NCBI GenBank assembly: GCA_018985235.1
Contig: JADGIG010000041.1
Coordinates: 1 to 34,079, forward strand
Direction: 5' to 3'
DNA from: Sanchytrium tribonematis
Taxonomy: Eukaryota
Length of the DNA stretch: 34,079 nt
In this document: piece by piece, positions 1,366 through 11,311 of the stretch
Numbering within the stretch: the stretch's first letter is position 1
How the letters are laid out: every line of letters begins with the position of its first letter
The notes under the pieces: generated by a model
What the model saw: the letters and a program-made list of their open reading frames with translations, nothing else
Told to the model about the DNA's origin: nothing
Database searches by the model: none
Position numbers and translations under genes: made by a program

Positions 1366-2464
1366 TCAAGCAGTTATCTTTCTACCCGTAAAATGGGCTT
1401 CTTCATCCCTTCCTAATCTTGATTGAGGGCCAAGGTCCTTGTGAGTTATAAATTCAATTAAGACGTTAATCCAAGAATTATGGTATTTCAATGGGGCATA
1501 AAATTCGTTCGCAATTTTGTTGACTTTTGGTAAATTTGTCCACGGCACTCTCATAAAGTCGTGATGCTCATTGCTTCGTTAATAGGAATTACTGATAACC
1601 CACGTTAAACCAAAATTGATTCATCCAACCATAATAACTGTAGGTTTCCTGGCCACTATCGAATGTGAAATGCTCTTGAATGAAATGTGCGGCACCCGGA
1701 TGACAGCCAAATCCTAGTAGGAGACTGAGTGTCATATAGATAAATGGCTTATAACCAAACGTATTATACATTATCAAATCGTTCAAGATGCAAAAAATCC
1801 AGTTATATATTTCCCATTTCGTTGGCTGCTTTTGCATTGCAGCGCCTCTCAACACATACCAAAATGAATACAAACACATCCAAATAAATTTTAAAATTGT
1901 GTTGCCTTTTACTAATTTCCATTCGAAATCTAGAGGCAAGTCTGGATCCTTGGAAGTAACGCCTTGAAAAGTATGATGCATCAGGTGATATCTCTTGAAG
2001 GAAGCAGCGATTGGAAAAACAATCACACTATTAGCAAGGAAACTAACAAGGCGGTTACCTAGAGCTGACTCAGCAGCAAGATTATGGGCACATTCATGGA
2101 TAGCTAGCCCGGCTATGCTTGTCACCGTTCCACCAACGACGTATGCTGCAATGACAATTACCACATAGCTTGGCTCATAATAGTTAATGAAAGACATAGC
2201 AAGTAGTTGAATTCCTAATAAAATCATGCAGTAATATTTTGTAAATGGTTCTATTCCATATAGCTTAGTTATTTCTGGATGTTTCTTTAAGATCTCATGT
2301 TTTCTCTTCAAGTGCGGCTCATCCCACTTATCGATAGCAATACCTTTATCTTTATAAGGAATTGAGCGATTCCATTCACCTAAATAAAGAGGATGTCTTG
2401 GATCTTTCTGACTAGTCTTAGGTGTAGTAAATGAATCTACTCTCTGACGAACACCTTGATTCAT
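1366..2464 (-). CDS. DES1: Sphingolipid delta-4 desaturase, two exons (2464-1593, 1573-1366)
   Basis: EPH..R..EILKKHPEI, His boxes HECAHN and HLMHH, and GQETYSYYG. Removing intron 1574-1592 restores the conserved FNVGYHNEHHDF. Confidence 0.93.
1574..1592 (-). other. 19-nt spliceosomal intron in DES1 (GTAATTCCTATTAACGAAG)
   Basis: GT..AG ends. Removal joins CA|C to give the His of GYHNEHH and links the two ORF fragments. Confidence 0.9.
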
Positions 2465-2647
2465 TTGTTACACATTTAATCCCCAATTTGAAGCATCACA
2501 TAAACCGTCAGTTTCGGGGTTTTTAGAGCCAGAACCGCTATAAGTTGTTAGTGTCTTTGAATAGTGTTTAAATACTTTATTAACACTTTCTCCAAATTAA
2601 ATTCAAAGATTTTTAGGTGGCTTCGCTTCTCGAGAAATCTATCTTTT

Positions 2648-3946
2648 ATGACTCCAATTAGAAAAGAATCACTTCCACCTTCAAAATCTTTACCAGTTCT
2701 TAATTTAATGAATGTTCCTAAGCTGCCAAGAAGTTTTTCTAAGCTGTATTTGTGTGATAATGATCCTAAGGCTATCAAATTACAGCTTTCTTCAGTACTT
2801 TCTATACCGAACAAAAGGTGGGAATTTTTGAATCAAAATAAGGACTTCGGACTTATAAATGGAGCAGTGGGAATTACAAACAATGGTAACACCTGCTTTA
2901 TGAACTCTACAATTCAGATGTTATTTCATATAAAAATTTTAAGTCAATACTTTATAAATGAAAGATATATCAGTGATCTTAACATCTATTCAGAAACCAA
3001 AGGAAACGTTGCGAAGTCCTTTGCCTCTTTGTTACGCTCTATGAATTCTTCTAAAGTAGTAAACGGGAAATCATTCAAAGACGAAATCTCGAAACATTTA
3101 GTTTACTTTGAAGGTTATGAAATGCACGATGCTCAGGAGTTCTTAATTAACTTACTTGATGCTTTAAGCGAAGATCTTAATAGGGCTTTTTCTAAAATAC
3201 ATAAAGTGAATTTTGATATTCTTGAAAAGCAAGAAGATTCCCTAACGCCAGAAAACAAAGCAAAGTTGGACTGGAATAAGTATCAATGTGTGCACCGTAG
3301 CTTAATCTTCGATTTATTTGGCGGACAATTTGAAAGCTCTATAATTTGTAAAAAGTGTTATAATAAGACTTATTCATTTGACATGTTTTGGGACATTTCG
3401 CTTCCCATGAAGTCCAGGAAAATCGGAAACTCCGACCTAAATGAATGTCTAGATTCTTTTGTGGAAGTCGAAGAAATGGAGTATCACTGCTCCAAATGCG
3501 GGCATTTGAAAGGCGACAAGCAGCAGTTGATATACAAATGGCCAGCGATTCTGATGTGCCATTTAAAAAGATTCTCTTATATGCTGGGGTGGAACAAAAA
3601 TACTTCCGACATAAAATTACCGATGTATCTCAGTACAATTAATTACTCCTCAAAAATAAAAGGATCAGATTCTGATGTCAACTATATAATTATTTCAATA
3701 ATTTGCCACTATGGGTCTCTGGATTCGGGCCATTATATTGCGTATTGCTACGATAATCAGGATGTTAAGTGGTACTGCTTAAATGACGAAGATGTTTCAG
3801 AATATATCATAAAGTTACACAAAAGAGGCCCATCTTTTGAATTTAGGAAAAAAAAGCGGGACGCAAAAGAAGAGGAATTTATCAAAGATTTGGGGAAACA
3901 TGCCTACATTGTTGTTTATCAAAAATCCGACATTTTAAAAGATTAA
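2648..3946 (+). CDS. Ubiquitin C-terminal hydrolase, USP/peptidase C19 family (USP2/USP8-like)
   Basis: Cys box GITNNGNTCFMNS, HDAQEFL, CxxC pairs, HLKRF, His box HYGSLDSGHYIAY and WYCLNDEDV. First in-frame ATG is at 2648. Confidence 0.9.
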   Translation: MTPIRKESLPPSKSLPVLNLMNVPKLPRSFSKLYLCDNDPKAIKLQLSSVLSIPNKRWEFLNQNKDFGLINGAVGITNNGNTCFMNSTIQMLFHIKILSQYFINERYISDLNIYSETKGNVAKSFASLLRSMNSSKVVNGKSFKDEISKHLVYFEGYEMHDAQEFLINLLDALSEDLNRAFSKIHKVNFDILEKQEDSLTPENKAKLDWNKYQCVHRSLIFDLFGGQFESSIICKKCYNKTYSFDMFWDISLPMKSRKIGNSDLNECLDSFVEVEEMEYHCSKCGHLKGDKQQLIYKWPAILMCHLKRFSYMLGWNKNTSDIKLPMYLSTINYSSKIKGSDSDVNYIIISIICHYGSLDSGHYIAYCYDNQDVKWYCLNDEDVSEYIIKLHKRGPSFEFRKKKRDAKEEEFIKDLGKHAYIVVYQKSDILKD

Positions 3947-10071: not shown

Positions 10072-10253
10072 GGAGTTCAATATTGAAAGCCGATACTTTT
10101 ACTTTTTTCATTCTTCGATGGCTGGACTGTCTCCTCAACCTAATGTTCAAAATAACAGCTATAATCACTCTTCATAGTCTTAAAGTAGATTTCAACATGT
10201 ATTAGCACATATCAATTCAATTTTAAATTGTGAATTAAACAATTGATGTGTTC

Positions 10254-11311
10254 TCATTTATTTTTGCTGCTCTCATCTTCCAATTGCCAGTTCGCAATAG
10301 TTTCCAAAAAACCTATGACAAAATACAATATCATAGCAAGAACTAAATAATTCCATAAATTGGAAATTACGGATTCACTTTCAAGGTAATTACTTCCCAC
10401 GGGTTTGTCATACTTCAGCTTCTGCTGGTCTATCTGATGAGATATCCATAGAAAAGCAGAATAATTTACACTTTTAATGTAAGTCAAAACTACATTTAAA
10501 GCCTCTTCACTAAATAAAGCTATCATGAAGATACTTTGAATAGAAGCCTTCACAAAAGCTTTTCCCATAAAAGTGGCTGTGAAGAAAGTCGAAAAGGGTA
10601 TCATAAAGTGACCGCATAACACCCCTGCCAAATCAAACAAAGGATTTGGTATCTAAATTAGTATTTTGTTACGCTGGCACAAAGCAATATTCCCCAAAAT
10701 CCGTAATTTTGCATGAGTTCATATAGTTTGACTTTGAGCAATTCAGAGTTAGTCCTCTTTTTACTTTTCAAAAGCTTCCTGATGGCCTGAAGTTCTTCCT
10801 TGGCTTTATGATCAGTTTTGGCAATAAAGTATGGCGGCAATTCTCCAATTGCGGTTCCAGCACCCCAAAAAAAAGTATTGAGAGAGACACTGTAAAAAAT
10901 TTCAAATATACTTGGAGATGAATTCTTTGAACAGGAAAGTTCAAGGCCATAATACAAATTCCTCGAAATTTCATCAGTCACTCCGCATCTTTGTGCAAAA
11001 TGTGTTACATGAACGATGTGAGGGCCGAGGTAAAGCAAAAAAGTATGAAGACCAGACCCAAACCCGATTGATGAGGCAACTCCCAAAAGAAACCAATAAA
11101 AGTTAAACTTAATTGGGTCAAGGATTGGATTATTCGAACAATATAATAAATAAACCAAACCAATCAACATCGCAAAAAAATAGAGATACTTAAATATGAG
11201 TCTAGCTATATATTTCAGAGAATAGAAAATTATAGACAACGGGCTGCTCTTAAAAAGTAAAACTTCATTTTTTGCTTGCCTATTCTTACTTTGAGAACGT
11301 GTAACAGCCAT
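10254..11311 (-). CDS. VMP1: Vacuole membrane protein 1 (VMP1/TMEM49, DedA superfamily), two exons (11311-10673, 10652-10254)
   Basis: LGVASSIGFGSGLHTFLLYLGPHI and WGAGTAIGELPPYF. Intron removal restores CASIPNPLFDLAG..CGHF. Confidence 0.93.
10653..10672 (-). other. 20-nt spliceosomal intron in VMP1 (GTAACAAAATACTAATTTAG)
   Basis: GT..AG ends with a CTAAT branch motif. Removal restores the conserved CAS|IPNPLFD. Confidence 0.92.

Follow-up and report, generated by a model that had tools for sequence, protein, structure and literature searches.

How short can an intron become in a fungus while the ordinary spliceosome still removes it? The question is raised by contig JADGIG010000041.1, a stretch of 34,079 nucleotides (nt) that was analysed as a whole (hereafter the window, to whose full length all positions refer), in which the reading frames of four genes are interrupted by segments of 19, 19, 19 and 20 nt. 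On the strength of comparative sequence evidence, these segments are likely true spliceosomal introns of the major class (U2-type) that have shrunk, in a sanchytrid fungus, to 19–20 bases; an adenosine at position -6 from the 3′ end likely serves as the branch point in their removal. The four candidate introns are the following.

Intron 1: 1574–1592, minus strand; 19 nt, phase 2, in DES1; candidate branch A at 1579.
Intron 2: 7145–7163, minus strand; 19 nt, phase 1, in G6PD; candidate branch A at 7150.
Intron 3: 8841–8859, plus strand; 19 nt, phase 2; interrupts a gene known only from close relatives of the window; candidate branch A at 8854.
Intron 4: 10653–10672, minus strand; 20 nt, phase 0, in VMP1; candidate branch A at 10658.

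All four begin with GTA, end with AG, carry T-R-A at positions -8 to -6 from the 3′ end and have a length that is not a multiple of three, exactly as the initial annotation of this DNA had described them. Within each one the upstream frame meets a stop codon, or part of one, so that, with these lengths, retention of the intron would truncate the protein. The introns lie 640–910 coding bases into their genes and are sparse, with four in ten genes or about 0.4 per kb of coding sequence (one gene start being approximate). The interrupted genes are as follows.

1366–2461, minus strand: DES1 (sphingolipid delta-4 desaturase); exon 1 2461–1593, exon 2 1573–1366; 358 amino acids when spliced.
6651–8076, minus strand: G6PD (glucose-6-phosphate dehydrogenase); exon 1 8076–7164, exon 2 7144–6651; 468 amino acids when spliced.
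8146–8959, plus strand: gene without annotated function or Pfam match; exon 1 8146–8840, exon 2 8860–8959; 264 amino acids when spliced.
10254–11311, minus strand: VMP1 (vacuole membrane protein 1, named after its homologs); exon 1 11311–10673, exon 2 10652–10254; 345 amino acids when spliced.

The case is carried by positions that homology fixes. The Pfam families Lipid_DES and FA_desaturase match the two pieces of DES1, and positions 2–144 and 143–292 of the G6PD_C profile are split between two frames of the G6PD gene. Every GT/GC..AG cut near the junctions of DES1, G6PD and VMP1 was scored against profiles of full-length homologs, and the cuts that remove introns 1, 2 and 4 ranked first among 60, 150 and 52 cuts, respectively. 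They scored 537 bits in DES1 (runner-up 509, unspliced 424), 681 in G6PD (runner-up 673, a 10-nt GC..AG cut; unspliced 440) and 307 in VMP1 (runner-up 292, unspliced 173). The spliced junction is free of gaps within 8 amino acids in 95 of 95 homologs of DES1, 114 of 115 of G6PD and 89 of 89 of VMP1, which bears out the earlier statement that three of the introns are backed by the conserved protein that splicing restores. Thus GT..AG ends stand at frame-restoring boundaries, by homology in three genes and, for the donor of intron 3, by orthologs, while the branch-type motif, with its A ahead of the acceptor, is read from the sequence only. The standard code reads six complete frames of the window normally. 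As had been anticipated, gene predictors split such genes: in EukProt the G6PD of the window appears as pieces of 308 and 175 amino acids and its VMP1 as pieces of 217 and 116.

The gene at 8146–8959, which sits between G6PD and VMP1, has four homologs, all in close relatives (E 7e-27 to 3e-13), in a search that spanned 1.84 billion representatives. A further candidate, P0368, is a repeat protein that matched at E 5e-6, and it was excluded from the set. Relatives were compared as proteins, which had been called without splicing and hence run into the intron. Fifteen of 16 close-relative proteins end just past the same donor as in the window (three for DES1, three for G6PD, five for VMP1 and four for the 8146–8959 gene); the sixteenth, P0004, ends earlier, on a contig of 1,164 bases. 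The orthologs that match each donor are listed below.

DES1: P0122, P0123 and P0242.
G6PD: P0002, P0003 and P0241.
VMP1: P0244–P0247 and P0371.
Gene at 8146–8959: P0364–P0367.

Intron 3, for which the initial annotation had offered no restored motif, is therefore backed by four orthologs with the same donor end. The length of the intron in a relative was obtained by back-translating its out-of-frame read-through tail; the match is maximised in this procedure, so that the margin over the runner-up serves as the test. By this measure the intron has 19 nt in P0002 (G6PD; score 37 against 2 for the next length), 20 nt in P0244 (VMP1; 96 against 8) and 19 nt in P0246 (VMP1; 34 against 0). For the chytrid Nowakowskiella (P0252), which served as a control, the tail at this VMP1 position yielded 58 nt (34 against 22). 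The proteins of Amoeboradix gromovi stop at intron positions 12–14 in G6PD and 17–19 in the 8146–8959 gene, the latter as in the window, which is compatible with 19 nt without fixing the length. The narrow length of 19–20 nt is thus found in relatives too. A non-sanchytrid VMP1 record, P0248, has its stop at intron positions 13–15, as does the 20-nt intron of the window. A scan of the JGI contigs with a degenerate pattern of the G6PD junction, allowing an intron of 14–44 nt, gave no match, and VMP1 scans of viral and prokaryote collections gave none either; none of the DNA collections scanned yielded a sanchytrid locus.

The same tails bear on the claim of an invariant branch-point position, of which one part stands and the other does not. 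An A at -6 fits all five relatives for which it could be deduced. P0246 permits no other letter there, and the same holds for P0364 and P0241 provided that their stop is the TAG of the acceptor, while the tails of P0002 and P0244 are compatible with an A. T-R-A as such is not invariant, as position -7 varies: it reads T in P0002, either C or G in P0244, and C or T in P0364 and P0241. The general motif is therefore Y/T-N-A rather than T-R-A.

To which organism these introns belong is answered by the proteins themselves. The nearest named protein for all four genes comes from A. gromovi (Sanchytriomycota), with an identity of 80% in DES1, 65% in G6PD, 57% in VMP1 and 54% over 90 residues in the 8146–8959 gene, and the last three of these genes (G6PD, VMP1 and the 8146–8959 gene) lie together on one A. 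gromovi contig. A DES1 tree of 28 proteins unites the window with A. gromovi and two environmental sequences, with support of 100/100, although a single-gene tree of this kind does not resolve the place of the group among fungi. The fungus-like lineage that had been proposed is accordingly narrowed to one that groups with a named sanchytrid, and the window comes from a sanchytrid distinct from A. gromovi. Sanchytrids are algal parasites with genomes of 10–11 Mb and about 35% G+C, and their proteomes consist of TransDecoder open reading frames (ORFs) on genomic contigs (PMC8371127).

The three conserved genes differ in what they say about the age of the intron positions. Of 121 proteins examined, 8 from outside the sanchytrids have the VMP1 break as well, two of them from chytrids and one a fish record; at least this intron is therefore an old one that has become shorter, not a new insertion. 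The DES1 break was seen only in the four sanchytrid-like proteins, whereas in most other fungal records that are unspliced the break comes a few codons later; the position may represent a gain or a shift. For G6PD, an alignment of at least 80 loci (at most 58% identity; from 29 of 64 parts of the collection) was contiguous at the site in 77 of 80, and the remaining three were without the motif, but these loci mix transcripts with genomic contigs and hence do not date the intron. Human G6PD presumably has an intron in the same codon as intron 2.

How could so short a segment be spliced? What is proposed is the usual two-step reaction of U2-type splicing, carried out on a minimal substrate. The GTA start would be read by U1 and then by U6, and U2 would pair with a yeast-like motif at about -12 to -5, from which the A at -6 would bulge and attack the first G. 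Branching at position 14 or 15 would yield a lariat of 14–15 bases and a tail of 5 bases. The acceptor would be the AG three bases past the branch A; as A stands at -6 in both the 19-nt and the 20-nt introns, the acceptor is likely set by its distance from the branch, length varying on the 5′ side, and a pyrimidine tract would not fit. The 5′ site would be separated from the branch helix by a few bases only, so that U1 and U2/SF3b probably could not occupy the intron together in the textbook way, and the short distance from branch to acceptor would render Slu7 and Prp18 dispensable; both may be lost. In yeast, these two factors are not needed where the branch lies less than 7 nt from the acceptor (PMC3392075), a limit given elsewhere as 9 nt or fewer (PMC10158995).

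The components for such a reaction were sought in the annotation table of A. gromovi (supplement of PMC8371127), whose 3,755 rows were searched by names and by identifiers. Entries include U1-70K, U1A/U2B″, U2AF1, a U2AF2-type protein, SF1/BBP, SF3B1, an SF3B3-type protein, SF3A1 and a Prp40-type protein, and Prp8, Brr2, Prp5, Prp17 and Prp22 are also present, so that U1, U2AF and SF3b, whose inventory had been suggested as a check, are all represented. No entry for U1C, Prp39, Slu7, Prp18 or minor-spliceosome proteins occurs among these rows, which were annotated by similarity from the unspliced ORFs of an assembly that is 92% complete and which leave about half of the proteins unannotated. 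The idea of a possibly reduced spliceosome consequently fares less well than the rest of the initial annotation: strong reduction is not supported, since U1-70K, U2AF, SF1 and SF3b are kept by annotation, and A. gromovi, the one species considered, does not show the highly reduced state of microsporidia and mikrocytids, in which most U1 and accessory proteins have been lost. Rfam gave no match at all in the window, and hence no small nuclear RNA. In A. gromovi the SF1/BBP annotation falls on two ORFs with consecutive numbers on a single contig (PMC8371127, supplement 4, rows 1135–1136), perhaps the halves of a gene that a tiny intron divides.

Several results weigh against the proposed explanation. 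Only four introns have been read as DNA, and their junctions are uncovered by any RNA contig of the runs X2–X4, three soil metatranscriptome runs of one study, in which short G6PD pieces are divergent and continue unlike the window. The bare motif (GTA, TRA at -8, AG, 18–21 nt) has 9 matches in positions 1–11400 against 5.1 in shuffled sequence (maximum 11 in 100 shuffles) and is thus no commoner than chance allows, so that the case rests on the homology-fixed positions and not on the motif. Two of the nine matches are sense-strand look-alikes within open frames of conserved genes, at 3772–3791 (plus strand, 20 nt) and 902–919 (minus strand, 18 nt), so that the motif is not sufficient by itself. 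The acceptor of intron 3 is less firmly fixed than the others: cuts of 34, 58 and 64 nt would also keep the frame, and no homolog of the downstream part helps to choose among them. The non-sanchytrid VMP1 tails of P0249–P0251 gave no clear intron length, and the G6PD intron of P0241 would have at least 23 nt, so that 19–20 nt is not fixed across the group. As for the second-step factors, the absent rows for Slu7 and Prp18 are weak evidence of loss, and the red alga Cyanidioschyzon lacks both despite long branch distances (PMC10158995).

The two look-alikes lie in the ubiquitin hydrolase gene (3772–3791) and the ASF1 gene (902–919) and are apparently richer in G+C than introns 1–4; they offer natural negative controls for other features that define an intron. 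The same soil runs carry contigs near-identical to the HSP70 gene of the window (4584–6477), for example 807 bases with 3 differences, which suggests that those samples contain this organism or one very close to it.

Among the alternatives, the one that survives best, though we consider it unlikely, is that the introns are real but unremarkable within a wider range of lengths (say 19–35 nt), the A at -6 arising from AT-rich composition together with selection for stops. Such a view can draw on the small number of introns and on the longer intron of P0241, on TAA/TGA serving also as an in-frame stop in introns 2 and 4, and on the frequency with which shuffling of the four intron interiors placed T-N-A at one common 3′ offset (1,023 of 200,000 shuffles). 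T-R-A did so in 17 of 200,000, the motif tested having been picked after the sequences were seen; it is moreover out of the upstream frame at -8 in introns 1 and 3, and so not merely a stop. All seven introns whose size is firm, namely the four of the window and three tails from at least two other genomes, have 19–20 nt. A separate scan that joined ORFs across GT..AG segments of 14–40 nt yielded 36 candidates, among which GTA with T-N-A at -8 occurred only in introns 1, 2 and 4; it requires 35 downstream codons, which excludes intron 3, and is blind to introns that are in frame or adjacent to the start.

That the segments are not spliced at all, the genes being broken (as pseudogenes or through assembly errors) or read by ribosomal frameshifting or hopping, is highly improbable, even though the RNA contigs, with the junctions uncovered, show no removal. 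The DNA run X1 (depth 87–138), which is possibly the source of the window and so not independent of it, matches all four segments with no gap or variant letter within any of them, and this speaks against a slip in assembly. The breaks recur in 15 of 16 proteins of relatives with the downstream exon still decodable, GT..AG ends are found in all, and a chytrid has a 58-nt intron at the VMP1 site. We know of no precedent for skipping 19–20 bases over a stop in four unrelated genes. The same run contains two versions at many sites in 7309–7381 and 10078–11351, at a depth ratio of about 40:60 and including small intergenic indels, which would be heterozygosity or mixed strains; one of these differences is the last exon base before intron 4.

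A minor-class (U12-type) nature of some introns, notably that of G6PD, is equally improbable. It was suggested by the start of intron 2 (7155–7163, minus strand), which is the only match in the window to what we take to be the nine-base U12 5′ consensus, and by the fact that U12 introns do without a pyrimidine tract (PMC3584512); it was rejected, as one match in the window is at chance level (mean 1.05) and as the match occurs in one of the four introns and is unconserved in orthologs, the tails of P0002, P0003 and P0241 being incompatible with that 5′ sequence, as the A. gromovi table holds no minor-spliceosome entry, and as the U12 optimum from branch to acceptor is 11–13 nt (PMC3584512) against 5 here.

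If the segments are major-class introns shrunk to 19–20 bases, as we believe, they have parallels in several unrelated systems. The closest is the ciliate Stentor coeruleus, which has thousands of introns of 15–16 nt; in those of 15 nt, position 10 is the branch A (PMC9505925). It shares with the sanchytrid case the GUA start, the AG end, the A at -6, the 5-nt tail, the retention of U1 and U2AF proteins, and the fact that Slu7 and Prp18 were not found; it differs in the length of its introns and in a branch region described as lacking a strong consensus (PMC9505925), whereas introns 1–4 resemble the yeast motif. As the Stentor lineage is unrelated, the shared geometry would be convergent. The nucleomorph of Bigelowiella natans likewise has 19-nt introns with a 5′ signal barely extending beyond GT(A), but it is an intron-dense relict nucleus without a branch signature, as reported for short-intron lineages by Irimia and Roy (PMC2483917), while the present introns belong to a main nucleus, at about 0.4 per kb, and have a fixed candidate branch site.

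Microsporidia (Encephalitozoon) are parasitic relatives of fungi with few, short introns (PMC6349667) and a branch motif, a hexamer, near the acceptor (PMC2483917). Their introns, however, have about 25 nt, directly follow the start codon, chiefly in genes for ribosomal proteins, and possess a strong 5′ site (PMC6349667), whereas introns 1–4 stand deep within housekeeping genes; their spliceosome is also highly reduced (PMC10245619), in contrast to the U1-70K and U2AF annotated in A. gromovi. Mikrocytos mackini is again a parasite with a narrow ultra-short class, but it is a rhizarian whose introns of 16–17 nt are conserved in sequence and reported from no metabolic gene, and it has only 17–19 spliceosomal proteins (PMC10245619). 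Myxozoans and dicyemids are opisthokont parasites that have kept old intron positions and U2AF; their median lengths are 22–27 nt, and their candidate branch A recedes from the AG with length (PMC13644364), unlike the A fixed at -6 here.

Introns of 15–19 nt are thus already known as a kind, and it is the sanchytrid case that is probably new. In the literature searched, the shortest fungal and animal cases are those of microsporidia (about 25 nt; PMC6349667) and myxozoans (median 22 nt; PMC13644364), and introns 1–4 would be shorter than any fungal intron found there. Among the papers listed there, none deals with sanchytrid nuclear introns; the search did not extend to some supplements of PMC8371127 or to a 2022 aphelid genome paper that may cover sanchytrids. 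In the main text of PMC8371127 introns appear only in the title of a reference, and the passages of the TPPP paper (PMC10459994) contain no discussion of sanchytrid introns.

The remainder of the window has a different character. Ten tightly packed genes occupy it up to position 11400, and from 11400 to 34079 they give way to broken mobile elements, as judged by Pfam.

11574–12622: Tc1/mariner element (Pfam).
14887–15213: SSB-like ORF (Pfam).
16281–20644: Helitron-like element with a PIF1 helicase (Pfam).
24063–25248: retrotransposon protease and reverse transcriptase (Pfam).
33353–34078: DDE_Tnp_4 transposase (Pfam).

These introns would add a fungal, and apparently independent, origin of introns below 21 nt, in a combination that is new compared with the published cases: an intron-poor genome, ultra-short introns, a yeast-like branch motif and the retention of early factors. 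They bear on the smallest intron that the spliceosome can accommodate with the 5′ site almost touching the branch helix, and a fungal case is open to reporter tests in yeast. A broader proposition, to which we give slightly less than an even chance, is that all sanchytrids share this 19–20-nt class, the shortest in fungi and animals, together with a near-complete major spliceosome, the Stentor geometry of a branch A at -6 and a 5-nt tail, reached independently, and the loss of Slu7 and Prp18. If this were true, a fixed short ruler from branch to AG and the loss of second-step factors would evolve together, and this in a fungus with components amenable to tests in yeast. For the sanchytrids themselves, plain ORFs were called and the public protein set has these genes in pieces, so that protein counts and claims of gene loss for the phylum may need re-annotation.

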